The notes: generated from the sequence alone by a model not told the origin. A stretch of 64,000 bases of DNA from an uncultured Candidatus Micrarchaeota archaeon (GCA_963791815.1 CAWBTT010000001.1:116802-180801); one strand, 5' to 3'; positions 2,518 to 15,404 are shown, counted from the first letter of the stretch. Numbers and translations: made by a program.

Positions 2518-3093
2518 ATGGAAATGAACTTTCTTGAGAAGCTGGTTGCGAACAGCAGGTTTTACAGCTTCTTTTTCAGGTACACTCTTCTCAAGTGGTT
2601 CCTTGATTTCTGCTCCCTAAAAGGCAGCTGCCTTGAGATTGGCTGCGGCAATGGGAAAAGCAGCCTGGAGATTATCAAAAGGTTCAAGGTGAAATTGACC
2701 GCGGTCGATATTGATAATGCGCAGGTTGCCCTCACAAGGAAAACTCTTGCAGGAAAAAAAGTAAAAATCCAAAAAGCGGATACCACAAACCTGCCGTTCA
2801 GGGATTCCAGTTTTGACTCGGTTGTCGAAACTTTTGTTCTTGTACATATTGGAGATTACCCAAAGGCGCTCAGAGAAATCAGGAGGGTTCTGAAGAAGAA
2901 TGGGAGCTTTTTCCTTATGGACCAGAGCGAGTATCTCTTCTGGCCCTTCAGCAGGCTGCTTCCATTCGACCACTTTGACGGGAAGTTCACAAAAAAGAAA
3001 ATGATGGGAGAACTCAGAAAAGCTGGCTTTGAAATTGTCAGAGAAGGATGGGGAGATATATTCATAATCCATGCAAGAAGATGTGAGAAATAA
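2518..3093 (+). CDS. Class I SAM-dependent methyltransferase (UbiE/Methyltransf_11-like)
   Basis: LEIGCGNG, AVDID, LPFRDSSFDSV. Confidence 0.9.
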   Translation: MEMNFLEKLVANSRFYSFFFRYTLLKWFLDFCSLKGSCLEIGCGNGKSSLEIIKRFKVKLTAVDIDNAQVALTRKTLAGKKVKIQKADTTNLPFRDSSFDSVVETFVLVHIGDYPKALREIRRVLKKNGSFFLMDQSEYLFWPFSRLLPFDHFDGKFTKKKMMGELRKAGFEIVREGWGDIFIIHARRCEK

Positions 3094-3186
3094 CAGAGAA
3101 TATATAAAAGAATGTGAAATATCCACACCCTTTGATGGAAAAGACATATAAATTACTAAATTCAGAAGTATTACTGGGTGGGGGAT

Positions 3187-3690
3187 ATGAAATTACAACA
3201 TAGGTCTATTCCGAAGGAAAGGAATGTCGGAAGGAAGATTGCTGGTTTTGTAGGGATGGCGGTCCTTAGCGCGGGGCTGATGTTCTCAGGATGCGACAAA
3301 AGAGGTGGACTGACACCCGCGCCTGAGCCGAACAACCGCCAGATAAGCGAACAGGTTGAGTGCAGTAAAGCTTTGACTGGGACCGAGAGCGCAAAAAGGC
3401 TTTTGGCAGAAGTGCACAACTCAACACTTGCCCTTAAGATGGATAATGCCATTAGGGCAGAACCAGGAGAAACAGTTCAGTTAACCTGGAAAATAAGGGT
3501 TGAGGACAATGGCCAAATCAATCTTGTCGGGATTGATGCAGACTGCGAGAACGGAAACTGCACCGGGCTGGATGCGCAAAGAATCAAGAGGAGCATTCCG
3601 AATTTAAGAATCGAGGCTCCTAGTGAGGACTGCGGTTGCAGATGGGACATCCGAACCATAGTTGAAAGCCAAAGAGGCGTTGAAAGTTAG
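3187..3690 (+). CDS. Hypothetical lipoprotein-like secreted protein
   Basis: Basic leader, hydrophobic stretch and FSGC lipobox-like motif; several Cys. Confidence 0.7.
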   Translation: MKLQHRSIPKERNVGRKIAGFVGMAVLSAGLMFSGCDKRGGLTPAPEPNNRQISEQVECSKALTGTESAKRLLAEVHNSTLALKMDNAIRAEPGETVQLTWKIRVEDNGQINLVGIDADCENGNCTGLDAQRIKRSIPNLRIEAPSEDCGCRWDIRTIVESQRGVES

Positions 3691-4013: not shown

Positions 4014-4904
4014 ATGAAGGAACTTCTTGAACTTACAGGAGTGAAAAAAACGTTTCTAGGTTTCCAGGAGGAATTTGAAAAGGCAAAGGCAGTTGTAATC
4101 CCAGTGCCTTACGATGCGACAACCAGCTATGGCTCTGGAACACGGTTTGGGCCTTCTGCAATCATAGAAGCCAGCACACAGGTTGAGCTTTATGATATTG
4201 AAAAGGGGAAGAACACCTGCGAGGATGTTCCAGTTCACACGCTTGATGAATTGGCAATTGACAAGGGCAGCCCTGAAAGGACCATCAAGAATGTCCAGAA
4301 GGCAGTCCGCCTTGTTGTGAACGCCGGGAAAAAACCAGTTGTGCTTGGCGGGGAGCATTCGATAACAGGAGGAGCGGTTGCTGGACTTAATGAAAGGGAG
4401 TTCTCAGTCCTTCAAATTGATGCTCACACTGATTTGCGGGATTCCTATGAAGGAACCAGGTGCAGCCACGCTTGCGTAATGCGCAGGGTGAGGGAAATCA
4501 CAAAAAGCACTGTGCAGATTGGAATCCGCTCAATGTGCGATGAGGAAGCAGAGTATATAGAGAAGGAGAAGCCAGTGATATTTTTCGCTGATGATTTGAT
4601 AAGGAACCGGAGGAATGATGGTCTTGCGGCAGCTGATCTCAGCAGCATAGTTTCACAATTGAAAGAAAAGGTCTACGTCACAATTGATGTTGATGGGTTC
4701 GATCCCTCGATATTTCCTGGGACTGGGACCCCTGAACCAAACGGCCTGCTTTGGAATGATGTTCTTTCAATCATGAAAAAAGTCGGGCAGGAAAAGGAAG
4801 TCCTGGGCTTTGATGTTGTTGAAGTCATGCCTGCTCCACCAATCCGGACAAGCGAGTTTTTGGCAGCCAGGCTCACTTACAAGATGATGGGGCAGTTCTG
4901 GTAA
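4014..4904 (+). CDS. speB: Agmatinase
   Basis: GGEHSIT, DAHTD, DVDGFDPS..PGTGTPEP ureohydrolase motifs. Confidence 0.92.
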   Translation: MKELLELTGVKKTFLGFQEEFEKAKAVVIPVPYDATTSYGSGTRFGPSAIIEASTQVELYDIEKGKNTCEDVPVHTLDELAIDKGSPERTIKNVQKAVRLVVNAGKKPVVLGGEHSITGGAVAGLNEREFSVLQIDAHTDLRDSYEGTRCSHACVMRRVREITKSTVQIGIRSMCDEEAEYIEKEKPVIFFADDLIRNRRNDGLAAADLSSIVSQLKEKVYVTIDVDGFDPSIFPGTGTPEPNGLLWNDVLSIMKKVGQEKEVLGFDVVEVMPAPPIRTSEFLAARLTYKMMGQFW

Positions 4905-5829
4905 TCTTTTTCAGCCTCTCAAGACTCTCATCCGGAGTCTCAATCGTGTTGAGAAGGTAGACCGGGGCCTTTGAGAAGAGTTCTGAGAAGAATTTCCTTC
5001 TTTTTAGCATCTTCTCTTTTGTCCTTACCAGCTGGTGGGGATTGCAGAAATCATTGCCGCTCATGAACTTCAGCGCTTGTTGCTTTGTCAGTTTTTGCAA
5101 TGGAGGGAGTTTCTTGTCCCTTGTAAGAAGAACTGTGGCGGTTAGCCTTGAATGTTTCCTTATTCTGTTTTCACCAAGAAGCCTCTTCACATCAATTACA
5201 GCACGGTTCCGGTTGTCAATTGTTGCAGACTTGAATTTCTTTCCATAGAATGGCCAGATTTCCCCAAGGTTGCATCTGATGTATGAGTTTCGCTCTGACG
5301 AGTAGGTAAGGACTTCATCATTCATGAGACGAACGAAAAACCAGTCGTCAGTAAGGAAATTGAATCCTTTCTGCTGGAGCAGGCCATATGTGAGGGTTGT
5401 TTTTCCGCTTCCAGATGGGCCTATTATCGCAACTCCGCGCCCCCCAAAATCAACAAATGAGCCGTGAACGGAATATCTCCGATGTTCTGATGTGAAATCT
5501 TCAAGGTAATCTGCTGCTACTGCGAGTGCGATGCTTTTTATCCATCCATAGTAGTCGCATCCCTGGACTATTGCGGTCTTTGAAATGGGCTCATAGCGGA
5601 CCCTGAGTCTCTTTCCCTTGAGTGCAAAAATTCTCCCGTGGGGCCTTATCCAGTCCGGCATGGGCTCGAAATTGTCTTCCCACATCTCCTTGAACTCTTT
5701 GCTGTCGGTGAAGAACTTGATGCATGTGCCATGCAAAGCCGCCTTCCTTTCATAAAGCTTTGATGAGTAGAATTTTTCCATCAGTTTCTCTTTGACATCC
5801 TGGGAGATTGTCTCGACTTTGTAGCCCAT
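4873..5829 (-). CDS. HPr kinase/PEPCK-like P-loop protein
   Basis: VHGSFV..GRGVAIIGPSGSGKTT and FLTDDW, the HprK-like signature. Confidence 0.75.
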   Translation of the reverse strand: MGYKVETISQDVKEKLMEKFYSSKLYERKAALHGTCIKFFTDSKEFKEMWEDNFEPMPDWIRPHGRIFALKGKRLRVRYEPISKTAIVQGCDYYGWIKSIALAVAADYLEDFTSEHRRYSVHGSFVDFGGRGVAIIGPSGSGKTTLTYGLLQQKGFNFLTDDWFFVRLMNDEVLTYSSERNSYIRCNLGEIWPFYGKKFKSATIDNRNRAVIDVKRLLGENRIRKHSRLTATVLLTRDKKLPPLQKLTKQQALKFMSGNDFCNPHQLVRTKEKMLKRRKFFSELFSKAPVYLLNTIETPDESLERLKKITRTAPSSCK

Positions 5830-5857
5830 GGGACAGGAATCACTGATTAGCTATATA

Positions 5858-6970
5858 TCACTTGCGCATGAGCTTTTTCTTCTTGAGTTCAAATACTGGA
5901 AGGTAAATCAGGAATGCTATTCCCTGGAAAAGAAGCACTGCCTCAATGCTGAATGTGACGAATAGGAAATACCCTGCCAGGCCGCCTGCCAACCTTCCCA
6001 GGTTGAGCATGAATTCCCTTGCCACCATTGTGTCAGCAAGCTTCTTGGTATTGTCAACTGCAAGAGCAAGGGAGATTGGGGAGAATATCCTTGCGAAGAA
6101 GGTAACCATCCCAAATGCGAGGAAAAATATCATGAGGTCTGGGGCAAATACAGCTGCCGCAACTGAAAGGCCAAAGCCAAGGGCTGATGAAAGGAGGAAC
6201 ATCCTCCTCTTGTGCAGTTTGTCAGAAACTCCTGAAATCAGGAAGGATGCTGCGATTGAGAATACTGTCGCAAGTGAAAGGAACCAGCCGACTTCAATCG
6301 GTTCATCAAGAAAAAGAAGAATCATGATTGGAAGTGTCAGCGAAGTGATGACCATCACGCTGAAGCCCTCAAGGAAAATGATTGAGCGCAGGCCAGAGAT
6401 GGAGGTTAGGCTTGTTCCGAAATCATATTCATATTTCCTGTCTTTTAGCCAGAACGCTGCCATGATGAACGTGAAAACATATGTCGCGATTGCTATTTGA
6501 TAAAGCTCTGGGAATCCCAGGTTCCCAGCGATTATTCCTGAGAAGGCTGGAAGCACCAGAGCAAGAACCGGGGATACGGAATAGTAGATTGCTGAAAGTG
6601 AGGCGTTGTTTTCCTTCCTGAATTCATAGTAGATTGTGTTGAATGGGAGCCAGAAGAAAAAATGGGTCGTACCCAGAATCAAACGATAAATGTAGGCTGC
6701 CCCAGGCTCTGGATAAAGGTAAAGCACAAGAACTGAGATTAGAGAGAGAAAACAGCCAATCAGCATGAATGGCTTGGTCCGGAACCCTTTGAAAAGAGGG
6801 AGAAGTATCAGTCCTGCAACAAACCAAAAGGCATCTGCAAGATAAATTTCAGGAAGAGACATTCCCATGTTGAAAAAATAAACCTCGAAAAGAGTGCCTC
6901 CAAAAAACATACCTGCTGTCCAGAGAGCGAAAATAATGAGGAGATCACGGAATTCTGACATGGGATTCAT
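5858..6970 (-). CDS. MFS transporter
   Basis: About 12 hydrophobic helices; GVSDKLHKRR motif A-like. Confidence 0.85.
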   Translation of the reverse strand: MNPMSEFRDLLIIFALWTAGMFFGGTLFEVYFFNMGMSLPEIYLADAFWFVAGLILLPLFKGFRTKPFMLIGCFLSLISVLVLYLYPEPGAAYIYRLILGTTHFFFWLPFNTIYYEFRKENNASLSAIYYSVSPVLALVLPAFSGIIAGNLGFPELYQIAIATYVFTFIMAAFWLKDRKYEYDFGTSLTSISGLRSIIFLEGFSVMVITSLTLPIMILLFLDEPIEVGWFLSLATVFSIAASFLISGVSDKLHKRRMFLLSSALGFGLSVAAAVFAPDLMIFFLAFGMVTFFARIFSPISLALAVDNTKKLADTMVAREFMLNLGRLAGGLAGYFLFVTFSIEAVLLFQGIAFLIYLPVFELKKKKLMRK

Positions 6971-7455
6971 AATTTCGTACTTTGAGATTTTAAATTCAGT
7001 GGATTGAAATCGAACGGTGTCTTGTGAGTATCCAGAACAAGCTGGCTTGAGGTTCTGATTACCAGGCTGTGGCTTGCTACTTTTTTCAATATGTCACGGA
7101 AGTGCTCCCTGCTCTTTACCCTCCAGCAGGTCATAGCATCCCAGTTGCCTGTGATGCTGTAAAAGGCCTCCAGTTCAGGAATATCAAGCAATCCTTCCAT
7201 TGTGTCTTTGTCCCATGGCCCCCCTTCAGGGAACTTGAGGAGTATCATGAAATGAAGATTATATCCCATCTTGGAAAAATCAATCTTCGTAGTGTAGTTC
7301 TCTATTATTCCCTGCTTTTCAAGTTTCTTTATCCTGAAAAGAAGGGTGTTTGGATGGATATCCGCCTTCTTCGCGAGGCTTTTTGCCGAGATTCTTCCAT
7401 TCTCAAGGAGTTCTGAAATCAGACGGATGTCCGTCTCATCGATGTCGTCCCGCAT
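6967..7455 (-). CDS. Lrp/AsnC family regulator
   Basis: IDETDIRLISELLENGRIS..HPNTLLFRIKKLEKQGII; SITGNWD RAM domain. Confidence 0.93.
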   Translation of the reverse strand: MRDDIDETDIRLISELLENGRISAKSLAKKADIHPNTLLFRIKKLEKQGIIENYTTKIDFSKMGYNLHFMILLKFPEGGPWDKDTMEGLLDIPELEAFYSITGNWDAMTCWRVKSREHFRDILKKVASHSLVIRTSSQLVLDTHKTPFDFNPLNLKSQSTKL

Positions 7456-7530
7456 GTCAACTCACCATTTAACATTTTTCACAGTATTTTTTTGTTTTCT
7501 AGTAAATTTTACTGGATTTTTTCGAATCAT

Positions 7531-7595
7531 AATGAAATTTCCTCTCTAAATTTCATTGGACTGTTTAATTGCACCATCAGTTATATAAACTGATG
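7531..7595. promoter_or_regulatory. Two inverted repeats in the divergent Lrp/methyltransferase promoter; candidate operators
   Basis: AATGAAATTT-N7-AAATTTCATT (7531-7557); CATCAGTT-ATATA-AACTGATG (7575-7595) centred on a TATA-like box. Confidence 0.55.
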
Positions 7596-7648
7596 CATTC
7601 TGCAATACACAAGAGTCCATTTTTAAGGATTTGATGAGAGATTAGTGT

Positions 7649-8560
7649 ATGCATAAGAAGAAGGGAGGAAATGGGGGGGAGCCGCCAAAGAGATTCCCAA
7701 GGCCACTGATTGAATGCCGCTCCAAGAAAAAAATAACAGAACTTTTCGATACAACACTGAGTTTTGCCAGAGAGAAAAGGGAGTATGGAGAAACCCTTAG
7801 TGACAGGCAGGGAAGCATTTTGCAGGAATATGATTCTTTCAGCAAACACGAGAGGGCTTTTTTCTTTTCATTATTGTATGACCAGTTTGCTGGCACTTAT
7901 GATCAGCATATGGGGCTTGACACTGGGCATTATGGTGCGTTGAGGGAAGTTTTCGTATTTTCAGCGCAATACTTCAAATCGCCTGTGCTTGACATAACAG
8001 CAGGAACAGGGGAACTGCTCTCATTTGCACTGGACCTTGCAGATGCAGGCGACAGTATCCGTTCGCACGATATGACAAGGGCACAGCAGATTGCATCTGG
8101 ACTTCTTCCAGATATTGGCACTGGTTCAGTTGTGGCAAATGAGATTTCGCCTAGAATGCTTGAGATTGCCAAGAGCAAACTGGAAAAACATGATGTCGCG
8201 TTTACTTCATACAACGCTCTTGGGCTTCCTGCCAACTGGCTTTTCAGGACAGTGCTCTGCTCCCAGACAATGCATCTTCTTGCTGAACCTGATAAGAAGG
8301 GGCTTGTGCAGTCAATCCATGATGTTCTTCTTCCAGGAGGCCATGCCATTGTTCTTGAAGAGGACCCGTTTATAGTTTCGCCGACTGCTTCTATTGATGG
8401 TGTTGGGCTTTTCATCAGTGCGGTTGCTTGTCCGATGAAAACTGATGCTTTGCTAGGCATGTTCGAAGTCAACGGATTCACTTATACTGAACACCGAGCA
8501 GCACACCAGATAGACAGTGACCACTTGATGAGACTCCACGTTTTCAGAAAATCATCTTAG
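7649..8560 (+). CDS. Class I SAM-dependent methyltransferase (paralog of 12488)
   Basis: YDQHM, VLDITAGTG, ANEISPRML, CSQTMHLL, LLPGG. Confidence 0.85.
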   Translation: MHKKKGGNGGEPPKRFPRPLIECRSKKKITELFDTTLSFAREKREYGETLSDRQGSILQEYDSFSKHERAFFFSLLYDQFAGTYDQHMGLDTGHYGALREVFVFSAQYFKSPVLDITAGTGELLSFALDLADAGDSIRSHDMTRAQQIASGLLPDIGTGSVVANEISPRMLEIAKSKLEKHDVAFTSYNALGLPANWLFRTVLCSQTMHLLAEPDKKGLVQSIHDVLLPGGHAIVLEEDPFIVSPTASIDGVGLFISAVACPMKTDALLGMFEVNGFTYTEHRAAHQIDSDHLMRLHVFRKSS

Positions 8561-9025
8561 TTCGTGCGCAAACGGATTGTACTCGAAATCCCTTTTGTAG
8601 TAATCCAGTATCAGCTGGGTACTGGTCTTTGTCACAACCCTGTTTTTCTGAAGCTGCCGAAGCAGATTTGCAAGGTGGAGCTCGTTGTCCACTCTTGCTG
8701 TTAGCATGGCATCATGCTCTCCAGTAATTAGTATGAAAGAAACTATTTCAGGAAGTTTGGCCAGTGGACGAAGATAGCCCTCCCAGCCCTTTTCCATGTT
8801 CACATTAAGAAAAATCATTGCCCGGAGTTTGTTCCCTATCTTTGTATGGTCCACAATTGCAGTGTATCCTTCTATTATCCCGTCCTGCTCCATTCGTTTC
8901 ACGCGCTGAAGCAAAGTATTTGGATGTATTCTCAGCTTGCGTGAAATCTGCTTGGACATCATCTTCGGGTTCTCAACCAGCTGGGCCAGTATCTTCCGGT
9001 CCAGTTTATCCAATTCTTCTGCCAT
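8552..9025 (-). CDS. Lrp/AsnC family regulator
   Basis: LDKLDRKIL..HPNTLLQRVKRMEQDGII; ITGEHD. Confidence 0.93.
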   Translation of the reverse strand: MAEELDKLDRKILAQLVENPKMMSKQISRKLRIHPNTLLQRVKRMEQDGIIEGYTAIVDHTKIGNKLRAMIFLNVNMEKGWEGYLRPLAKLPEIVSFILITGEHDAMLTARVDNELHLANLLRQLQKNRVVTKTSTQLILDYYKRDFEYNPFAHELR

Positions 9026-9347
9026 AACCCCACCACATAATATTTGTGAGGGTGACAATATTAATCTTTTTCCGATTTCACTGTGGACATCCACATCAAA
9101 CAAAAGAAAAATCTGGGATATCCATAAAACAGTGAGAATGCACCCAATGATTATGGCCGTACGATTGCTTTCTTTGTTATTTCTGGTGAGCAGGCTTTGT
9201 GCTCCTTGCAGAAATCTTCACAAAGCAGGGCAAGGCGCACATCAGCATATCCAAAATTGCATTCAGAACACATATACGCCGGCTTCATCTCAAAATTCTT
9301 TACCCAGACCATTGCATTCCGTTTGTGAATAGCATTTTAAATTCTGA

Positions 9348-10196
9348 ATGGAAACTCTCCCCATGCTTAAGGATTTTGCGAAGCTGACAAGGTTTGAGCA
9401 CGCGCTGATGCTTGCATTTGCAGTTGTGATTGCAGAGACGGTTGTGCTTGGCGCGCTTCCGCCCTTGGAATTAGTAATAATAATTTCTGTCCTTGTCCCG
9501 ATATTCAGCGAGATGGGTTCTTTTGCACTCAATGATTACTTTGATATTGAAACTGATAAATTGAACAAGAAGAAAGGGCCTTTGGTAACCGGGGCAATCA
9601 AACCGCAGACCGCGATGAGTTTCGCAATCGCGTCATTGGTCGTTTCAACAATCCTTGCTTACATGATAAACAATCTCGCGTTCATGATTGTATTCGCTTT
9701 CAATGTTTTCGCAATTCTTTACAACTGGAAACTGAAGGACATGCCGCTTCTTGGCAATGTTTTCATTGGGTTGACAATGGCAATCCCATTCATCTTCGGA
9801 AACTATGTCGTCTCATCAGAGCTTTCATCACTTACAATAGTTCTTGCGGCTCTTGGTTTTGTTGCTGGTGTTGCGAGGGAAATAATCAAATCTGTCCAGG
9901 ATATGGAAGGCGATGTCAAGGCAAGGGGCTCGAAAACAATTCCGGTTGTTATTGGAAAGAAACCTGCGACATATCTTGCGGTTATCCTGTATCTCCTATT
10001 CATTCCATTGACCATTCTTCCTTTCATAAAAGGGCTTGAGACAAACATCATATCCACTTTCCTTGTGGCTTTTGCAGATACCATGATTCTATCGATATGC
10101 TACAAGTCACTGAAAGAAAATTACAAATTCGCAAGAAATGCCAGTTTGATAGCGTTCTTAGTTGGCATGCTTGGCATCCTCGTAGCGGCCCTCTGA
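9348..10196 (+). CDS. UbiA-family prenyltransferase, probable DGGGP synthase
   Basis: NDYFDIETDKLNK and REIIKSVQDMEGD Asp-rich motifs; multi-TM. Confidence 0.88.
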   Translation: METLPMLKDFAKLTRFEHALMLAFAVVIAETVVLGALPPLELVIIISVLVPIFSEMGSFALNDYFDIETDKLNKKKGPLVTGAIKPQTAMSFAIASLVVSTILAYMINNLAFMIVFAFNVFAILYNWKLKDMPLLGNVFIGLTMAIPFIFGNYVVSSELSSLTIVLAALGFVAGVAREIIKSVQDMEGDVKARGSKTIPVVIGKKPATYLAVILYLLFIPLTILPFIKGLETNIISTFLVAFADTMILSICYKSLKENYKFARNASLIAFLVGMLGILVAAL

Positions 10197-10272
10197 TTAT
10201 CTGGCGATTGTCGCTTTGGTTTCACTAATCTTTTTAAAGAAACTGGCAGTGAGCATCCTATTGGTGAATATT

Positions 10273-10656
10273 ATGGCAAAGAAGAACATGAAACATTATG
10301 GCGAATACGCATTTCTTGCCGGAGTGGTGCTTGCCTTGTTGCTTGGAATCCTTTCATCAACCATGCCTGCCAGCACGACACCCATTATAATCATGGTTCT
10401 TGCAGTGCTCGGCATAATTGTTGGCCTTGTGAACATCACTGCGAAGGAGACACAGACATTCCTTATTGCGACAATCGCGCTCCTTATGGCTGCAACGGCC
10501 TGGACTCCGCTGATAACTGTTCTTGCATTATTCGGGGACATGGGAACGACGGTGGCTATGTGGATTGGGGGATTTGTAACACACCTGGTTGCATTCATCT
10601 CGCCTGCTGCTTTCATAGTAGCCCTTAAGACGATTTATCTCCTGGCCAAGGACTAA
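10273..10656 (+). CDS. Conserved 4-TM membrane protein
   Basis: GGTGA RBS; GIIVGLVNITAKETQTFL.. Confidence 0.75.
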   Translation: MAKKNMKHYGEYAFLAGVVLALLLGILSSTMPASTTPIIIMVLAVLGIIVGLVNITAKETQTFLIATIALLMAATAWTPLITVLALFGDMGTTVAMWIGGFVTHLVAFISPAAFIVALKTIYLLAKD

Positions 10657-10742
10657 GTCCTCTCCTTATCTTTTTTAAATATTCCTAATCTTCAATTAGT
10701 AAGCTATTTTCTAGCAGTTCCCAGAAATGGGAGCGAGCCAAG

Positions 10743-11093
10743 GTGGCGAAACACATGAAAGACAATCAAACTCTGGTTTCTTTAGTAGAGAACCTAATGA
10801 AGGATAAGAAGCCTCTATGGAAAAGAGTGGCCAAAGAGCTCTCAAAACCAAGGAGGAAAAGGGTTGAGGTTAATCTCAGCAGGATTGAAGAGCACGCAGC
10901 GGCTGATTCGACACTCCTGATTCCAGGAAAAGTCCTTGGAGCAGGGAACCTGTCTAAGAAGGTAACGGTCGCAGCATTCTCATTCAGTGGCAGCGCAAAA
11001 AAGCTGATAGGAGCGGCCGGTGGAAAGGCAGTAACAATTGACAGCCTCCACAAGTCAAACCCCGAAGGAAAGGGAGTCGTCATTTTCAAATAG
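10743..11093 (+). CDS. rpl18e: 50S ribosomal protein L18e
   Basis: KPRRKRVEVNLSRI, IPGKVLGAG; operon context. Confidence 0.95.
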   Translation: MAKHMKDNQTLVSLVENLMKDKKPLWKRVAKELSKPRRKRVEVNLSRIEEHAAADSTLLIPGKVLGAGNLSKKVTVAAFSFSGSAKKLIGAAGGKAVTIDSLHKSNPEGKGVVIFK

Positions 11094-11104
11094 AGTTGAT
11101 TTTC

Positions 11105-11521
11105 ATGCAGGTAATAGACGCAACAGACATGATTTTCGGAAGGACCGCAAGCCAGGTAGCCAAAAGGCTTATCAACGGCGAGGAAATCCACATCATTAAC
11201 GCTGAGAAGTTCGTCATTGTTGGCAACCCAGTCGAGATTGCCGGTAGATACAAACAGAAGAGAACCTTGAAGAACAAGGCTGACCCTGAGAAATCACCAA
11301 AATGGCCAAAGGTTCCGCACATGCTCGTGAAAAGGATGGTTCGTGGAATGCTGCCAAGGGAAAACTCAAGGGGAAAGGCAGCTCTCGGAAGATTGATGGT
11401 CTACACTGGAAACCCAAAGAACATGGAGCAGAATCTCAAGATTGAGAAGGCTTCATTTGACGGGTTGTCAAAGCACATCACAGTTTACGAGCTGTGCAAG
11501 AAGATAGGTTACATAGGTTGA
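11105..11521 (+). CDS. rpl13: 50S ribosomal protein L13
   Basis: VIDATDMIFGRTAS, VRGMLP. Confidence 0.95.
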   Translation: MQVIDATDMIFGRTASQVAKRLINGEEIHIINAEKFVIVGNPVEIAGRYKQKRTLKNKADPEKSPKWPKVPHMLVKRMVRGMLPRENSRGKAALGRLMVYTGNPKNMEQNLKIEKASFDGLSKHITVYELCKKIGYIG

Positions 11522-11526
11522 TAATC

Positions 11527-12144
11527 ATGGCAAAGAAAGAAGAAAAGAAAGAGACCAAGAAGAAGGTCACAAAGAAGAAGGCTGAGCCAACGAAGGAAGC
11601 TCCTAAGAAAGAGGAGAAAAAGGTTGAAGCTAAGGTTGAGAAGCCGACGGTTGAGGCCAAGATTGAAACGCCAAAGGTTGAGAAGCCCGAGCCAAAGAAG
11701 GAAGCCCCTAAGAAAAAAACAAAGAAGAAAAAGGCAAAGAAGGTCACAAGAGCTATTGTGGCTAGGGGAAAGAGAAAAGAATGCGTGGCAAGGGCAACCA
11801 TCAAAGAAGGCAAAGGCCTGGTCAGGTTCAACAGGATGCAGATATCTGCTCTCAACAATACCTATATTCAGCAGATTATCACAGAGCCGCTTGGATACGT
11901 GGGCGCTGATGCTAATGGCATCGACGTCTCTGTCAATGTCAATGGTGGAGGAACCATGGGACAGGCACAGGCTGCCCGTGTCGCAATCGCGAACGCACTC
12001 ATACTCTACTTCCAGGACAAGAAGTTGAGGGACAAGTTCATATCCATCGACAGATCATTAGTTATCGAGGATACTAGAAGGGTTGAAACCAAGAAGTTCC
12101 GTGGACCCAAAGCAAGGGCCAGGTACCAGAAATCATACAGGTGA
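11527..12144 (+). CDS. rps9: 30S ribosomal protein S9 with K/E/P-rich N-terminal extension
   Basis: GGGTMGQAQAAR..ETKKFRGPKARARYQKSYR. Confidence 0.95.
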   Translation: MAKKEEKKETKKKVTKKKAEPTKEAPKKEEKKVEAKVEKPTVEAKIETPKVEKPEPKKEAPKKKTKKKKAKKVTRAIVARGKRKECVARATIKEGKGLVRFNRMQISALNNTYIQQIITEPLGYVGADANGIDVSVNVNGGGTMGQAQAARVAIANALILYFQDKKLRDKFISIDRSLVIEDTRRVETKKFRGPKARARYQKSYR

Positions 12145-12145
12145 T

Positions 12146-12343
12146 ATGTTGGAATTCCCCGTTAGGTGCTTTACCTGCGGCTCTGTCGTAGGCCATCTTT
12201 ATGATGACTACAGAGAGAACATCAAGGAGAAGACCCCTGATGTTGTTCTCGATGAGCTCGGAGTGGAAAGGTACTGTTGCAGAAGAATGTTTATGAGCCA
12301 CGTCGACCTAGTGCCGAATGTGCTCAGATACCCAAGAGTGTGA
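12146..12343 (+). CDS. rpoN: RNA polymerase subunit N (Rpo10)
   Basis: PVRCFTCG..RYCCRRM. Confidence 0.96.
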   Translation: MLEFPVRCFTCGSVVGHLYDDYRENIKEKTPDVVLDELGVERYCCRRMFMSHVDLVPNVLRYPRV

Positions 12344-12487
12344 GAAATCACACTATTTTTTCCACATTTTACCTACAACTAAAACAATCAATTTATATTA
12401 TTTGCCTTTCCTAAATAGTATTGGATGATGGGTTGTTTGGTGGATTACTTTGCAAAGCTCAATTTATGATATATGGGGGGTGGAATA

Positions 12488-14041
12488 ATGGCAGGTGAAA
12501 ACGCAGGCAGGAAAAAGGAAAGGCCTGCTACAAGGCCAAAGGTTAGCAGTAGCCCCAGACTTAGAGCAGTGTCCCCTTCACTTGAAAAATTCCGCCAGGT
12601 ACCAGATGACGTTCCTAAATCAAGCACAAGAAGAAGGGCTGATTTTGATAAGGTGCTCACAGAAGTAATATCATTGGCAGATGCGGTTGAAAGGCGAGAG
12701 CAGATGGAGTCCCGGGCAATAGAAAAAGCCATCGAGGCCATGCCAGGCGACTACACAACAAACGTCAACAGAATTCTTTTCGGCATATGGGCAAGGGATT
12801 ATGACTCCCACATGGCCGGCCACGTCACTTCAATAGAACATCTTATTCGAAAGACAGTTGCACTTCAGACGAGAGGACAGAAAATATTCGGCAAGAGAAT
12901 CCTTGATGTGTCCTCAGGAACCGGTTCTGTGATTGACTTGATTTGCAGGTCAGTTCCTCCGGATATTGCGAGGCAGATGGAATTCATTGCAAATGATATC
13001 AGTCCTGAGATGCATGCAAAGGCAGAAAGGAAAATAGCCGCACTTCCAGAGGAAATGAGACCGATGTTAGTGCCAAGGCACGAAGACATGCGGTCACTTA
13101 CCCTGCCGTGCAGAAGTGTTGATACTTCACTTATTTCACAGACATTCCACTTGATTACAGACCCTGCCATGGGACCGTTGAACGGCGCTGGAAACCACAA
13201 CCAGGTCAAGGCCGAGGTCATTGAGAGCATGTTTGACCGGACTGCTGAGGGAGGGCATTTCATACTTATTGATGAGTGGAAGCCAATCCTGACAAGAAGG
13301 GCAGGAATGGAAATCATAGACGCCTTATTCCACGCCACATTCAAACCAATCTGGGAAAAATACGCATTCATAGAGATGATGAAACGGGTGCGCATGAAGG
13401 ACAGTAACGACACGCGCGTAGTCGGGGCAAGAATGGTAGCTGAGCTCAAGGCTTGGATTGACCCTGACCACCGGATGTACATTTTCGTTTACCAGAAAGA
13501 TCCTGACAAGATGCATCACCGAGGGATATACCTGCCAGACTTCAAGAAACATGAGAGTATGCGGGAGATTGCAGTAGGCGAACTTCTTGAAAGGTTCAAA
13601 CTTACTGACCAGGAGTTCGTGACCAGCTTCGCGCCTGATGAGAGCCCGGAAAAGAAAGACCTTATCAGGTTCGGTGCGTTCAAGGACATGAAACACCTCG
13701 TTGTTGATAGCCCAAGGGCCGACTTCGAGCCTGGCCAGGAGGCAATCATATTCACAAGAGTTCTTCATGACATGCCAGACTCAATGAGAGACATGGCAAT
13801 TGAGAATGCCACAAAGGCGCTTGTCAAGGGAGGAGTGCTTCTTTTCATTGACGAGTTCCACCACCCGACAAGAAACGGGCGAACCAGCAAGGATTATCCA
13901 TACAGAAAAAGCACTCTGAGGGGAGACCTTGGAATCAATTATGAGAGAACCCTTCTTTTCGAAGGTGCTCTGAGAGTACACCTTGAAGAGGGGTACGACA
14001 GCGGCATGTATGGGTTCATGTACAGAAAAATAGAGGATTAA
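12488..14041 (+). CDS. SAM-dependent methyltransferase with a second, degenerate MTase domain
   Basis: YDSHM, ILDVSSGTG, ANDISPEM, ISQTFHLI; C-terminal IIFTRVLHDM..LVKGGVLLFIDEF. Confidence 0.82.
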   Translation: MAGENAGRKKERPATRPKVSSSPRLRAVSPSLEKFRQVPDDVPKSSTRRRADFDKVLTEVISLADAVERREQMESRAIEKAIEAMPGDYTTNVNRILFGIWARDYDSHMAGHVTSIEHLIRKTVALQTRGQKIFGKRILDVSSGTGSVIDLICRSVPPDIARQMEFIANDISPEMHAKAERKIAALPEEMRPMLVPRHEDMRSLTLPCRSVDTSLISQTFHLITDPAMGPLNGAGNHNQVKAEVIESMFDRTAEGGHFILIDEWKPILTRRAGMEIIDALFHATFKPIWEKYAFIEMMKRVRMKDSNDTRVVGARMVAELKAWIDPDHRMYIFVYQKDPDKMHHRGIYLPDFKKHESMREIAVGELLERFKLTDQEFVTSFAPDESPEKKDLIRFGAFKDMKHLVVDSPRADFEPGQEAIIFTRVLHDMPDSMRDMAIENATKALVKGGVLLFIDEFHHPTRNGRTSKDYPYRKSTLRGDLGINYERTLLFEGALRVHLEEGYDSGMYGFMYRKIED

Positions 14042-14520
14042 CCCTTTACAAGCATGTTGGAAAGGGGATTGAACTCATACGCTTCCTTATACGTCACAAG
14101 AATCAGGTAGCTTGTGGTCCGCAGAACTGCTTTCTGTGACTGGATTGCTTTGAGGAGCCTTACCAGGCCATCCCGGTTTTTTGCTTTGACGATTGCTATG
14201 CAGTCGCTGACTCCGGTAACGGCGTAAAGTGCCACAACTTCAGGCTGCCTGGCAACGTCGTGAAGAAGGTTCTCGTCTTCAAGACCGCTCTTCTTGATTT
14301 TAATCATGACTACTGCATGCATATCATATCCAAGTTCCTTGTAGTCAATGTCAGCATGATATTTGCGCACCACCTTGGATTTCTCCAGTCTCTTGATTCT
14401 CTGGAGGAGTGTGTTTGGGTGCATTCTGAGTTTTGTAGCGAGCTCCCTCATCGGCCTCTTGCAATCCTCCCTCAATTCCCGCAAAATCATAAGGTCAACT
14501 GCGTCTACTTTGTTTTTCAT
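14038..14520 (-). CDS. Lrp/AsnC family regulator
   Basis: VDAVDLMILREL..HPNTLLQRIKRLEKSKVV; AVTGVSD. Confidence 0.93.
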   Translation of the reverse strand: MKNKVDAVDLMILRELREDCKRPMRELATKLRMHPNTLLQRIKRLEKSKVVRKYHADIDYKELGYDMHAVVMIKIKKSGLEDENLLHDVARQPEVVALYAVTGVSDCIAIVKAKNRDGLVRLLKAIQSQKAVLRTTSYLILVTYKEAYEFNPLSNMLVKG

Positions 14521-14714
14521 TCTACCACCATTTTTGTTATCATAAACCATTATTGAGTATGGGATAACGGCAATATTGTTGATTTGTCCGTTTTTTCCAC
14601 AAATAATTATGCAAATTGTTATTTATATACTTTACCTTTTTGACCAAAATAACGGAGGACAGAATACAATAAGTTTATAAAAGTCAGATTAAAGGCATAT
14701 GCAGGTGAATTCAC

Positions 14715-15404
14715 ATGGTAGATGTACAAAACGTAACAGATGTCTTGACCACCGCCTTTTCGGGCGCTGCGGACAATCTGGTTACCAGCACCACAGAAGT
14801 CCTTCCAGGACTTATTGCGGCAATCATTGTATTCCTTATTGGATGGATTTTGGCAGTCATAGTCAGCCGGATATTCGGAGGAATCCTCAAAGCAATACAG
14901 CTTGAGAGACTCCTAAAGGAGCACAAAGTCGAGGACTCACTCGGCAGCGTGAAGATAAGCGACGTGCTTGTCAAGATTGTGAAGTATTACATTATACTCA
15001 TTTTCCTGCAGGCAGCTGCTTCGCTTATCACCCTCGGAACTGTCAGCGCATTCCTCGCAACAGTGTTGTTTTATGCGCCAGTACTTATCGCAGCAGTGCT
15101 CGTGGTTCTAGCCGCGGTCATTCTGGGAGAGTACATTAAGGAGACGATTCTTGACCTCAAGAGCAAGTCTTCGATGGTTCAGCTTTTTGCCAGAGTAACC
15201 AAATGGATAGTAGTCTACATTGGTATTACGATGGCGATGGCAACGGCAGGATTTGACACCACCCTGATTAGCAACATATTCCTGATAATTCTTCAGGCCA
15301 TGGTCTATGGTATCGCCCTTGCGGTTGGTATAGCATTCGGACTTGGCGGACAGAAGGATGCTCAGGACCTTGTTGGTAAGAGCAGGAAGATGCTCAAATT
15401 CTAA
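14715..15404 (+). CDS. CmpX-like / MscS-associated TM-helix protein
   Basis: LPGLIAAIIVFLIGWILA..; ends IAFGLGGQKDA. Confidence 0.82.
   Translation: MVDVQNVTDVLTTAFSGAADNLVTSTTEVLPGLIAAIIVFLIGWILAVIVSRIFGGILKAIQLERLLKEHKVEDSLGSVKISDVLVKIVKYYIILIFLQAAASLITLGTVSAFLATVLFYAPVLIAAVLVVLAAVILGEYIKETILDLKSKSSMVQLFARVTKWIVVYIGITMAMATAGFDTTLISNIFLIILQAMVYGIALAVGIAFGLGGQKDAQDLVGKSRKMLKF

Follow-up and report, generated by a model that had tools for sequence, protein, structure and literature searches.

We found that, within a single family of Micrarchaeota-like DPANN archaea, genes for a class I SAM methyltransferase and for an Lrp/AsnC regulator lie tail to tail and are inherited together, and comparison across relatives supports a real, co-inherited enzyme/regulator module. 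We tentatively read these pairs as lineage-specific cassettes, each quite plausibly made up of a methyltransferase and an autoregulated, metabolite-sensing Lrp regulator. The genome in which we analysed one window, a stretch of 64,000 nucleotides, is 1.47 Mb in size and Micrarchaeota-like, and its host is an archaeon of the small, symbiotic type. It contains two full cassettes (MT1/Lrp1 and MT2/Lrp2), an additional regulator (Lrp3) and a third copy of the enzyme that has no Lrp.

Gene order in the window

The gene positions given by the initial annotation all proved right except for the start of MT2, which moves from an ATG at 12488 to 12473 (Table 1). For Lrp1, the start is likely Met27 at 9025 rather than the end of the ORF at 9103. 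The annotated tail-to-tail overlaps, 9 bp between MT1 and Lrp1 (8552-8560) and 4 bp between MT2 and Lrp2 (14038-14041, TTAA), can be read directly from the DNA, and coordinates and strands agree with the placement of Lrp3, divergent from MT1, at the head of an Lrp-MFS-HprK-like run. Such overlaps are common in this genome: in a crude gene set with crudely called ORFs, 118 of 255 convergent pairs overlapped at their 3' ends, 49 of them by exactly 4 bp. On one side the island is bordered by a conserved agmatinase gene, which converges on the HprK-like gene and overlaps it by 32 bp. The MFS transporter does not belong to the conserved part of the module. In the mapped MT1 loci, an MFS gene adjoined MT1 in this genome and otherwise only in G370 and G319, which argues against the export role that had been suggested for it.

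Table 1. Features of the cassette island, with positions counted from the first nucleotide of the window
Feature	Position	Strand	Basis or remark
Agmatinase (arginase family)	4014..4904	+	Pfam Arginase 3.3e-71
HprK-C/PEPCK-like P-loop kinase-like protein, 318 aa	4873..5829	-	Last in Lrp3-MFS-kinase run
MFS transporter, 370 aa	5858..6970	-	Pfam MFS_1 2.4e-19
Lrp3, HPNTLL-type Lrp/AsnC regulator	6967..7455	-	HTH_AsnC-type and AsnC_trans_reg; alignment
Lrp3/MT1 divergent promoter region	7456..7648		Read from sequence
MT1, class I SAM methyltransferase (lineage-specific family), 303 aa	7649..8560	+	Pfam, NCBIfam, alignment, AF2 model
Lrp1, HPNTLL-type Lrp/AsnC regulator	8552..9103	-	Convergent with MT1
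Operator-like palindrome TGTGGACATCCACA	9082..9095		Lrp1/UbiA divergent promoter region
UbiA-family prenyltransferase (DGGGP-synthase-like)	9348..10196	+	Pfam UbiA 3.5e-39; NF009523 227 bits; divergent from Lrp1
Palindrome TGTGAGAAATCACA	12339..12352		121 nt upstream of MT2; overlaps rpoN stop codon
MT2, two-part MT1 paralogue, 522 aa	12473..14041	+	Pfam, NCBIfam, BLASTP, AF2 model
Lrp2, HPNTLL-type Lrp/AsnC regulator	14038..14550	-	Convergent with MT2
Lrp2/MscS-like divergent promoter region	14551..14714		TATA box and inverted repeat
Membrane protein, MscS-type TM helix	14715..15404	+	Pfam MS_channel_1st_1 2.8e-11; divergent from Lrp2

The methyltransferases and their partner regulators

Both enzymes match Methyltransf_25/11/12 in Pfam, and BLASTP aligned MT1 with MT2 at 23% identity over 321 columns (E 8e-10). 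The four motifs on which their paralogy had been proposed (YDxHM, LDxxxGTG, AN(D/E)ISPxM and SQTxHL) line up between them, in part as features generic to class I enzymes (motif I, the post-I acidic residue and the 'H' after strand 4), and the two are true but distant paralogues. A family HMM scored MT1, MT2 and the third genomic copy far above the other methyltransferases. The SAM-binding motifs are intact. Alignment A2 has invariant residues at D115, G119, T120, G121, E237, E238 and H292 of MT1, and it contains both class I motif I (D/E-x-G-x-G-x-G) and the acidic residue after strand 2, with N164/E165 nearly invariant; the SAM motifs of MT2 read LDVSSGTG and ANDIS. Seventeen near-length homologues of MT1 were found among 5.8 billion clusters, and orthologues of MT2 are only 24-36% identical.

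AF2 models of MT1 (pLDDT 88.2) and MT2 (pLDDT 78.1), together with VIA fold matches, place both enzymes in the seven-stranded Rossmann-like fold, with Z scores of 17-20 against many class I enzymes of solved structure and an rmsd of 2.5-3.3 over 180-200 residues. MT1, whose matches at Z 17-20 are generic, is modelled as a basic disordered N terminus, a lid of three helices and a Rossmann core. MT2 is modelled as a disordered basic N terminus, a helical lid, a complete core at about residues 140-345 and a C-terminal domain at about 360-520; its VIA matches (Z 16-18.4) are confined to residues 89-344, and the C-terminal beta-alpha-beta domain repeats motifs IV-V and lacks motif I. Fold and sequence searches returned a flat list of generic methyltransferases that indicated no substrate. 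The modelled folds resemble those of generic small-molecule methyltransferases.

Judged by sequence, the cassette enzyme appears to be a fast-evolving class I SAM methyltransferase that is distantly UbiE/COQ5-like. It shares the class I fold with UbiE/MenG/COQ5, and its N-terminal 'YDxxM...G H' lid aligns with the UbiE models from their start, with MT1 residues 76-237 on positions 13-155 and MT2 residues 102-216 on positions 13-119. However, the scores fall far below the equivalog and subfamily cut-offs, both for TIGR01934 (UbiE/MenG; 23.2 for MT1 and 21.3 for MT2 against 158.35) and for NF001244 (21.4 and 22.5 against 216), and the enzymes differ from that group in their extra helices and basic tail and, in MT2, in a second, degenerate half-domain. 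PF01209 of Pfam was marginally reached by MT1 only (20.7 versus 20.1 bits). We therefore rejected an assignment as UbiE/MenG/COQ5 quinone C-methyltransferases, and by curated thresholds the enzymes are not the ordinary quinone or RNA methyltransferases that the initial annotation had named as the outcome that would count against it. The substrate is most likely a small molecule and possibly one that is amino-acid- or amine-like. Within the wider family, the enzyme has been found next to, or fused with, a ThrRS-editing-like domain or gene and also an AlaE-like segment. The amino-acid hints come from these associations and from the agmatinase neighbour.

All three regulators carry HTH_AsnC-type (1.1e-10 to 3.1e-10) and HTH_24 domains in Pfam, followed by a RAM domain (AsnC_trans_reg, PF01037) that scored 33-43 bits against a cut-off of 25. 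They are 34-36% identical to one another, and their alignment bears out the common recognition helix, in which HPNTLL does not vary, and the (F/Y)NP(L/F) tail. Only these three of the 12 Lrp-family ORFs in the genome contain HPNTLL. Across the phylum genomes searched, regulators of this type are nearly confined to one family, being present in 31 of 75 genomes of family f1 and in 1 of 325 others. Lrp1 (SH-aLRT 99; orthologues 51-74% identical) and Lrp2 (SH-aLRT 100; orthologues 77-81% identical) each define a clade. Single Lrps linked to a methyltransferase form one clade of 26 (SH-aLRT 87), with Lrp3 grouping inside a clade of such Lrps and the other Lrps of the genome falling outside.

Conservation of the pairing

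We surveyed the regulator side with a degenerate DNA pattern for HPNTLLxR in 401 genomes of the phylum. The pattern gave 62 matches in 33 genomes, compared with one for a reversed-pattern control, and 60 of the matches lay in Lrp ORFs. A family methyltransferase was directly convergent with 40 of these 60 genes (3' ends at -35 to +151 bp) and convergent at 385-1722 bp with another eight, so that the convergent partnership expected by the initial annotation holds for 48 of them; in three genes the methyltransferase was only divergent, and nine had none. The direct pairs came from four genera (g1, g6, g11 and g117), and genera g9 and g114 have direct pairs without the exact pattern. On the enzyme side, an Lrp lay nearby, in flanks of up to 1.5 kb, in 26 of 45 distinct family methyltransferase genes from 32 genomes, against a baseline of 35 among the 1294 genes of the crude set for this genome; one candidate-scoring step of the analysis took at most five candidates per genome. 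The expected congruence of enzyme and regulator trees was also found: a mirror-tree comparison of 46 pairs gave r = 0.71, a value attained by none of 2000 within-genome partner shuffles (mean 0.15, sd 0.06).

None of 51 adjacent pairs of the HPNTLL clade was co-directional, whereas the neighbouring agmatinase/kinase-like pair flips orientation within the genus (same strand in four genomes, convergent in three). Genomes hold two to four cassette copies. The genes that flank the pair differ outside g1. Within that genus, synteny extends over the entire island (about 10 kb), and most of the pairing counts therefore go back to a single ancestral arrangement. Distant family enzymes adjoin tandem-double Lrp genes, either divergent or on the same strand (G269, G374, G167 and L131-L133), which indicates that the association of enzyme and Lrp recurs in other architectures.

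The pairing has exceptions. No Lrp accompanied any of six members of the third enzyme subfamily, which comprises the third copy of this genome with its orthologues, nor did one lie in the flanks of 14 ThrRS-editing-type relatives in metagenome contigs, and the HPNTLL Lrps of g112 adjoin a PurP-like gene instead of a methyltransferase. In G158 and G323 the enzyme has been lost, and an Lrp1- or Lrp2-type gene is still head to head with UbiA or MscS. The Lrp/UbiA head-to-head pair occurs in many members of the genus, including these two genomes without MT1, and the Lrp2/MscS pair occurs also in G093, G146 and G323.

Promoter palindromes, possible functions and an island neighbour

Conserved palindromes mark the promoters of the regulators. 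The palindrome between Lrp1 and UbiA has a counterpart in other genomes, a TGTGG-N4-CCACA element at -54 to -90 of Lrp1-type genes. The Lrp2/MscS-like region contains ATTTGT-N11-ACAAAT (14582-14604), and orthologous Lrp2 leaders contain TTGTGAT-N3-ACACAA and TTGTTAC-N5-6-TAACAA. Overall, 21 of 59 Lrp genes were preceded, at fixed offsets, by TGTG-N3-9-CACA or TTGTDA..THACAA. The Lrp3/MT1 region (7456-7648) lacks the TGTG..CACA motif and has two perfect inverted repeats, GAAATTT-N7-AAATTTC (7534-7554) and CATCAG around a TATA-like TTATATAAA (7575-7595). The palindrome upstream of MT2 is not conserved: the motif preceded only 1 of 46 family methyltransferase genes, with a background of 47 in 2000 random 300-nt windows. 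We therefore saw no direct link from regulator to enzyme promoter.

To account for these observations, we propose that the tail-to-tail gene pair was duplicated and then inherited as a unit. Each Lrp would be an autoregulated, ligand-responsive transcription factor acting on the palindromes of Lrp promoters, and its RAM domain may sense a metabolite of the partner reaction, whether substrate, product or a Met/SAM-related compound. Through its own promoter the Lrp could control the output of both the cassette and its head-to-head neighbour (the UbiA-type prenyltransferase, the MscS-like protein or MT1). With no palindrome in the enzyme promoters, the enzyme gene would have to be controlled either indirectly, by convergent transcription with antisense running into the partner, or through an unrecognised site; the lack of intergenic terminator space is what suggests antisense read-through. 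Lrp/AsnC (feast/famine) local regulators adjoin the metabolic gene that they control, as with AsnC-asnA in E. coli, archaeal LysM and BarR. The regulators described here resemble them in having the full HTH_AsnC-type and RAM (AsnC_trans_reg) domains, a dedicated neighbouring enzyme gene and AT-rich, palindromic, operator-like sites in their own promoters. They differ in that the conserved partner is tail to tail rather than head to head, the enzyme promoter has no operator-like site, and the regulators make up a separate clade, in which the HPNTLL helix is invariant, and belong to a cassette multiplied two- to fourfold per genome.

It is also possible, although we consider it rather unlikely, that synteny has been frozen with no functional coupling, the Lrps being ordinary local regulators that control themselves and their head-to-head neighbours and the methyltransferases just long-standing tail-to-tail neighbours whose 3' overlaps make separation costly in a compact genome. 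Overlapping convergent ends are indeed the norm here, it is the Lrp/head-to-head promoter regions, not those of the enzymes, that hold the conserved palindromes, the Lrp/UbiA and Lrp/MscS pairs outlast the enzyme, one enzyme subfamily exists without an Lrp, and genus-wide synteny inflates the counts. However, the pair is kept in g6, g9, g11 and g117 despite different flanks, both genes are retained in three paralogous cassette lineages whose partner trees agree, distant family enzymes are tied to another Lrp type in other orientations, and the overlapping agmatinase/kinase-like pair nearby is not locked in orientation. Co-inheritance, correlated trees and strict one-to-one pairing would also fit a direct coupling of the proteins, in which the enzyme methylates its partner Lrp and so tunes DNA binding, or the RAM domain serves as an amino-acid-sensing allosteric subunit; genes of interacting proteins remain adjacent and co-evolve. 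Protein N-terminal methyltransferases are among the tied fold matches of MT2 (NRMT1, Z 18.4; ScNTM1, Z 18.1), but they are tied with dozens of small-molecule enzymes. The contrast between conserved Lrp2 and divergent MT2 orthologues in the genus is a rate mismatch that would be odd for a tight interface, and no single-chain Lrp-methyltransferase fusion was found among 22 long relatives scanned. We regard such coupling as improbable.

The cassette reading that we favour retains part of what the initial annotation proposed, a conserved and co-inherited enzyme/regulator module, and drops its specific claim of a signal synthase and sensor; the Lrp-less subfamily also speaks against that claim. That proposal was modelled on EsaI/EsaR and ExpI/ExpR, convergent LuxI/LuxR-type quorum-sensing pairs with overlapping 3' ends, and would have the enzyme make or destroy a diffusible ligand that the Lrp senses and the MFS transporter exports. 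In its favour, an enzyme that uses SAM and a regulator that binds a ligand are kept together, with their genes tail to tail, in several paralogous copies, and rapid divergence of the enzyme beside a conserved regulator could reflect diversification of a signal. The protein families are unrelated, however: Pfam (E <= 0.01) detected no LuxI-family synthase or LuxR-type receptor domain among these proteins. The EsaI/EsaR-like arrangement is present, yet 3' overlap is a general habit of this genome and so a non-specific argument, an MFS gene is rare beside MT1, the palindromes are at Lrp and not enzyme promoters, and the fold points to no exported-signal chemistry. Such a circuit would moreover combine a conserved receptor with a variable synthase. 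These data make a signalling circuit very improbable.

The HprK-like protein of the island is 65-79% identical across the genus, and its gene is usually divergent from MT1. Its similarity to Hpr_kinase_C in Pfam (40.4 bits) covers only residues 118-175, the P-loop segment, and an assignment as a full-length HPr kinase/phosphorylase failed (TIGR00679, 42.8 against a cut-off of 240). A search of the PDB gave a match to HprK at 1.5e-4, and its look-alikes in the Atlas are archaeal 'HPr kinase family/aldolase' clusters.

The methyltransferase/Lrp island

The island lies in the 1.47 Mb assembly of a Micrarchaeota-type (DPANN) archaeon (G000; five contigs, 88% complete; window at C1:116802-180801) and carries two methyltransferase genes, MT1 and MT2, each facing an Lrp gene (Lrp1 and Lrp2) tail to tail, an arrangement that we call a cassette; a third regulator gene, Lrp3, is divergent from MT1. 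Sequencing runs listed for the genome comprised two DNA sets with small shares and no RNA set. The 3′ overlaps noted in the initial annotation are exact, at 9 bp for MT1/Lrp1 and 4 bp (TTAA) for MT2/Lrp2. They had been taken as a sign of coupling of the EsaI/EsaR kind, but 118 of the 255 convergent pairs in G000 overlap at their 3′ ends, 49 of them by exactly 4 bp (crude set of 1305 ORFs), which makes the overlap non-specific. The 4-bp convergent overlaps in this extremely compact genome are shared TTAA-type stops, and in a compact genome an overlap between the 3′ ends of convergent genes does not on its own count as evidence of coupling.

Features of the window and related loci of G000 and metagenome contigs (plain coordinates are window positions)
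Feature	Position	Strand	Remark
Agmatinase	4014-4904	+	
HprK-C/PEPCK-like P-loop protein	4873-5829	-	
MFS	5858-6970	-	
Lrp3	6967-7455	-	
MT1	7649-8560	+	
Lrp1	8552-9103	-	probable start 9025
Palindrome	9082-9095		Lrp1/UbiA region
UbiA-type prenyltransferase	9348-10196	+	
Small membrane protein, then ribosomal proteins L18e, L13, S9 and RpoN	10743-12343	+	L18e-RpoN identities read from translations
Palindrome	12339-12352		upstream of MT2
MT2	12473-14041	+	
Lrp2	14038-14550	-	
MscS-like membrane protein	14715-15404	+	
MT3 (third family copy in G000)	C3:123838-125439		533 aa
Tandem-double Lrp	C2:172972-173973		
Tandem-double Lrp	C1:104046-105017		
Tandem-double Lrp	C3:342348-343328		
Tandem-double Lrp	C5:32665-33642		
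Tandem-double Lrp	C3:22322-23353		
ThrRS-editing-like and methyltransferase ORFs	L119:3001-3963		also L120-L124, L127-L130, L134, L137

The three Lrps are complete HTH + RAM proteins with a mutual identity of 34-36%, and the HPNTLL helix that they had been said to share is invariant among them. G000 holds 12 Lrp-family ORFs (seven single, five tandem-double), and HPNTLL occurs only in Lrp1, Lrp2 and Lrp3. The tandem-double proteins, of about 325 aa with two HTH+RAM repeats each, represent a type that also adjoins distant methyltransferase-family members in other genera. A fourth Lrp gene of non-HPNTLL type, whose product is 35% identical to Lrp2 (locus L005, G000:C3:61205-64645; locus positions 1489-1947), lies head to head with a gene for glutamine synthetase and overlaps by 4 bp a convergent 469-aa gene, whose reading as RelA/SpoT-like comes from its sequence alone. 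Best conserved in the island is the gene for the HprK-C/PEPCK-like protein (65-79% identity across the genus); clusters resembling this protein in Thermoplasmatota and Methanobacteriota bear the names 'HPr kinase family' or 'aldolase'.

Conservation and co-inheritance of the pairing

We surveyed the pairing from both sides, using ORFs from a crude longest-ORF rule. On the enzyme side, 201 genomes from the class and 401 from the phylum, with one search scoring at most five candidates per genome, yielded 45 distinct family genes in 32 genomes, and 26 of the 45 had an Lrp in their flanks (up to 1.5 kb); the baseline in G000 is 35 of 1294 crude genes with an Lrp that near. Members of the MT3-type subfamily had an Lrp neighbour in none of six cases. 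For the regulators, a degenerate pattern of the DNA encoding HPNTLLxR gave 62 matches in 33 of the 401 phylum genomes, whereas the reversed pattern, used as a control, gave one; 31 of the 33 genomes belong to the window's family besides G000 itself, and 60 of the 62 matches fall inside Lrp ORFs. A family methyltransferase was directly convergent with 40 of these 60 Lrps (3′ ends -35 to +151 bp) and convergent at 385-1722 bp with a further eight; three had only a divergent one, and nine had none, two of these with under 1 kb of flank. The direct pairs came from four genera (g1, 34; g11, three; g6, two; g117, one), and further direct pairs, lacking the exact pattern, occur in g9 and g114. HPNTLL Lrps of g112 adjoin a PurP-like gene, and no family methyltransferase flanks the single one of g118. 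Such counts come from incomplete assemblies that sample the phylum and include relatives that are not independent: throughout g1 the entire island is syntenic, with two HPNTLL sites 5.1-6.4 kb apart in 14 genomes, so the g1 counts represent essentially one ancestral arrangement.

Single Lrps linked to a methyltransferase group in one 26-member clade (SH-aLRT 87), separate from the other Lrps of the genome and containing an Lrp1 subclade (99), an Lrp2 subclade (100) and an Lrp3-like one. Patristic distances in the partner trees were correlated at r = 0.71 across 46 pairs, after removal of one pair in which an enzyme occurred a second time; shuffling partners within genomes gave 0.15 +/- 0.06, and 0 of 2000 shuffles reached the observed value. 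The Lrp clade and the agreement of the partner trees together indicate that cassettes were duplicated and inherited as units, and one genome (G146, locus L017) carries three of them in a row or nearby. Orientation is locked as well: none of the 51 adjacent pairs of the HPNTLL Lrp clade is co-directional, whereas the adjoining, overlapping agmatinase/kinase-like pair is co-directional in four genomes and convergent in three. Distant family members are linked to a tandem-double Lrp (about 320 aa), divergently or on the same strand, in three genomes (G269, G374 and G167) and three metagenome contigs. The Lrp clade with its tree agreement, the orientation lock and the tandem-double linkage argue for real coupling. 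The methyltransferase/Lrp module of the initial annotation is thus real, as both the neighbourhood survey (26 of 45 enzyme genes with an Lrp; 48 of 60 HPNTLL Lrps with a convergent family methyltransferase) and the co-phylogeny bear out.

The methyltransferase family

MT1 and MT2 are paralogues, as proposed: they are 23% identical over 321 columns (E 8e-10), with all four of the motifs first noted aligned, although the weight of the shared motifs is tempered by three features found in class I enzymes generally: motif I, the acidic residue that follows it, and the histidine after strand 4. By family HMM, G000 has exactly three members, MT1, MT2 and MT3, which score far above its other methyltransferases. 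The MT1 model (pLDDT 88.2) has a basic, disordered tail and a Rossmann core, with a lid of three long helices bearing the signature LYDxFAxxYDxHMGxxTGHY; the MT2 model (pLDDT 78.1) has an extra C-terminal beta-alpha-beta domain that repeats the 'H...GGxLxxIDEW' part without motif I.

Structure and profile searches (Foldseek, VIA, PDB) returned class I enzymes in flat lists, most of them acting on small molecules, with tied rows at Z 16-20; among the matches listed were DhpI, UbiG, ChlM, Hvo_0019, phosphoethanolamine and phosphatidylethanolamine N-methyltransferases, CysG/BelI and NRMT1. The best sequence match was of the CysG/BelI type (9e-9, over only 83 core residues), and the best NCBIfam matches (CpaM, UbiE, ArsM, BioC) all fell far below cut-off. 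Because the lists are flat and tied and the NCBIfam matches sub-threshold, no substrate can be read from structure or sequence. A DNA/protein amino-methyltransferase with a DPPY-type motif was rejected, since the conserved EEDPF comes after strand 5, not strand 4. The lid region is distantly UbiE/COQ5-like at scores far under the thresholds of those families, which sets the enzymes apart from ordinary quinone or RNA methyltransferases.

This is a small family. A catalogue of 5.8 billion clusters contains 17 near-length homologues of MT1, and among 1.84 billion representatives the family profile matched 2744 at E <= 1e-3, 198 at 1e-10 and 46 at 1e-30. No related loci were found for an MT2 query in the genome-contig collection. 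Evolutionary rates across the genus are lopsided, the Lrps being better conserved than their partners (Lrp2 77-81% versus MT2 24-36% identity; Lrp1 51-74% versus MT1 37-47%). In one genome (locus L106, G223:C1:367904-368752) a second MT1-type copy is broken by one in-frame TGA into fragments of 89 and 99 aa, beside an intact Lrp1-type partner gene.

In wider relatives the methyltransferase comes with a domain of ThrRS-editing type, a segment like AlaE or a weak receiver-like region, which offer faint hints at amino-acid chemistry. On several metagenome contigs a ThrRS-editing-like ORF (115 aa) and a methyltransferase ORF (203 aa) share one frame with a single stop between them, which could reflect an artefact of gene calling, read-through of the stop or a different genetic code; the protein catalogue includes fusions of about 324 aa, and the full-length form was absent from the genome-contig collection and the phylum sample. 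We rejected the idea that this fusion is connected with the Lrp pairing, because the stop separates the ORFs and none of 14 such metagenome loci had an Lrp in its flanks.

Promoter palindromes and the possible role of the cassette

Palindromes are kept at fixed offsets upstream of the Lrp genes of the clade, with exact matches in 21 of 59 regions, a count that understates degenerate sites. Lrp1-type genes have TGTGG-N4-CCACA about 54-90 nt before the start, and in Lrp2-type genes the stretch from TATA box to start holds TTGTGAT-N3-ACACAA and TTGTTAC-N5-6-TAACAA. The common TGTG/CACA core fits the common recognition helix and the usual autoregulation of Lrps. At the enzyme genes (-260 to +40) a palindrome was found in one of 46, namely MT2 of the window, which is the random level (47 of 2000 random 300-nt windows); the MT2 match is not conserved and is not taken as evidence, and a regulator site at enzyme promoters was rejected. 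With palindromes at the Lrp genes and only random matches at the enzyme genes, the data support Lrps that are probably autoregulated and act on their own and head-to-head promoters, with no direct operator predicted at the enzyme promoter.

It is quite possible, though in our estimate just short of an even chance, that the cassette is a functionally coupled unit of an enzyme and a metabolite-sensing regulator. Any Lrp control of the partner enzyme would then need either a site that has escaped recognition or convergent transcription that crosses the overlap, where no terminator lies. That the synteny is simply frozen, and that the Lrps serve their head-to-head neighbours, where the palindromes lie, is a serious but unlikely alternative; the orientation lock and the agreement of the partner trees speak for coupling instead. 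Coupling at the protein level, with the Lrp methylated by the methyltransferase or in an allosteric complex with it, is in our view improbable.

The signal-synthase/receptor circuit first suggested from the convergent layout seems the least probable of these accounts, and the analogy gains nothing: the proteins have no LuxI or LuxR domains, the overlap is non-specific, and nothing points to a diffusible product. The MFS, proposed as the exporter of the system, adjoins MT1 in only two other mapped genomes, and we rejected it as a conserved member of the cassette. Hardly more probable is a speculative scheme in which each cassette would work by itself as a metabolite circuit found only in these host-dependent archaea. 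Its fast-diverging methyltransferase would synthesise or break down one particular methylated compound resembling an amino acid, which no regulator but the co-evolving partner Lrp would sense, and the strictly convergent, terminator-less layout would set transcription of enzyme and regulator against each other as a toggle. If true, this would be a new kind of archaeal signal/ligand synthase-sensor system with several orthogonal channels per genome.

The cassette is a lineage-specific variant of the familiar theme of a local Lrp regulator plus an enzyme. To our knowledge, regulators are few in DPANN archaea, and hardly any of their regulatory circuits have been studied. A clade-specific Lrp subfamily whose recognition helix is invariant and whose operator-like sites can be recognised, and a partner enzyme that is faithfully co-inherited and multiplied several times per 1-1.5 Mb genome, therefore offer a concrete and testable entry point. 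Identifying the substrate would give a function to a family with 198 cluster representatives at E <= 1e-10 and could reveal metabolites that these symbionts monitor. Full-text literature searches gave no description of this methyltransferase/Lrp pairing; passages of PMC5498576 and PMC3388794 do not deal with it, and the one Micrarchaeota paper refers to an Lrp solely next to a copper ATPase. The contribution here consists of quantified counts, a co-inheritance test and a promoter-motif contrast.

Other inverted repeats were seen nearby. A further TGTG-N5-CACA palindrome, TGTGAAATATCCACA, lies at 3113-3127, 51 nt upstream of a 170-aa ORF (3178-3690) and just after an unrelated Methyltransf_11 gene (2518-3093). 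The divergent Lrp3/MT1 promoter (7534-7595) contains the perfect inverted repeats GAAATTT-N7-AAATTTC and, around a TATA-like box, CATCAG / CTGATG; another genome with the same Lrp3/MT1 layout (G093) has ATTTCACAA-N5-TTGTGAAAT in their place.
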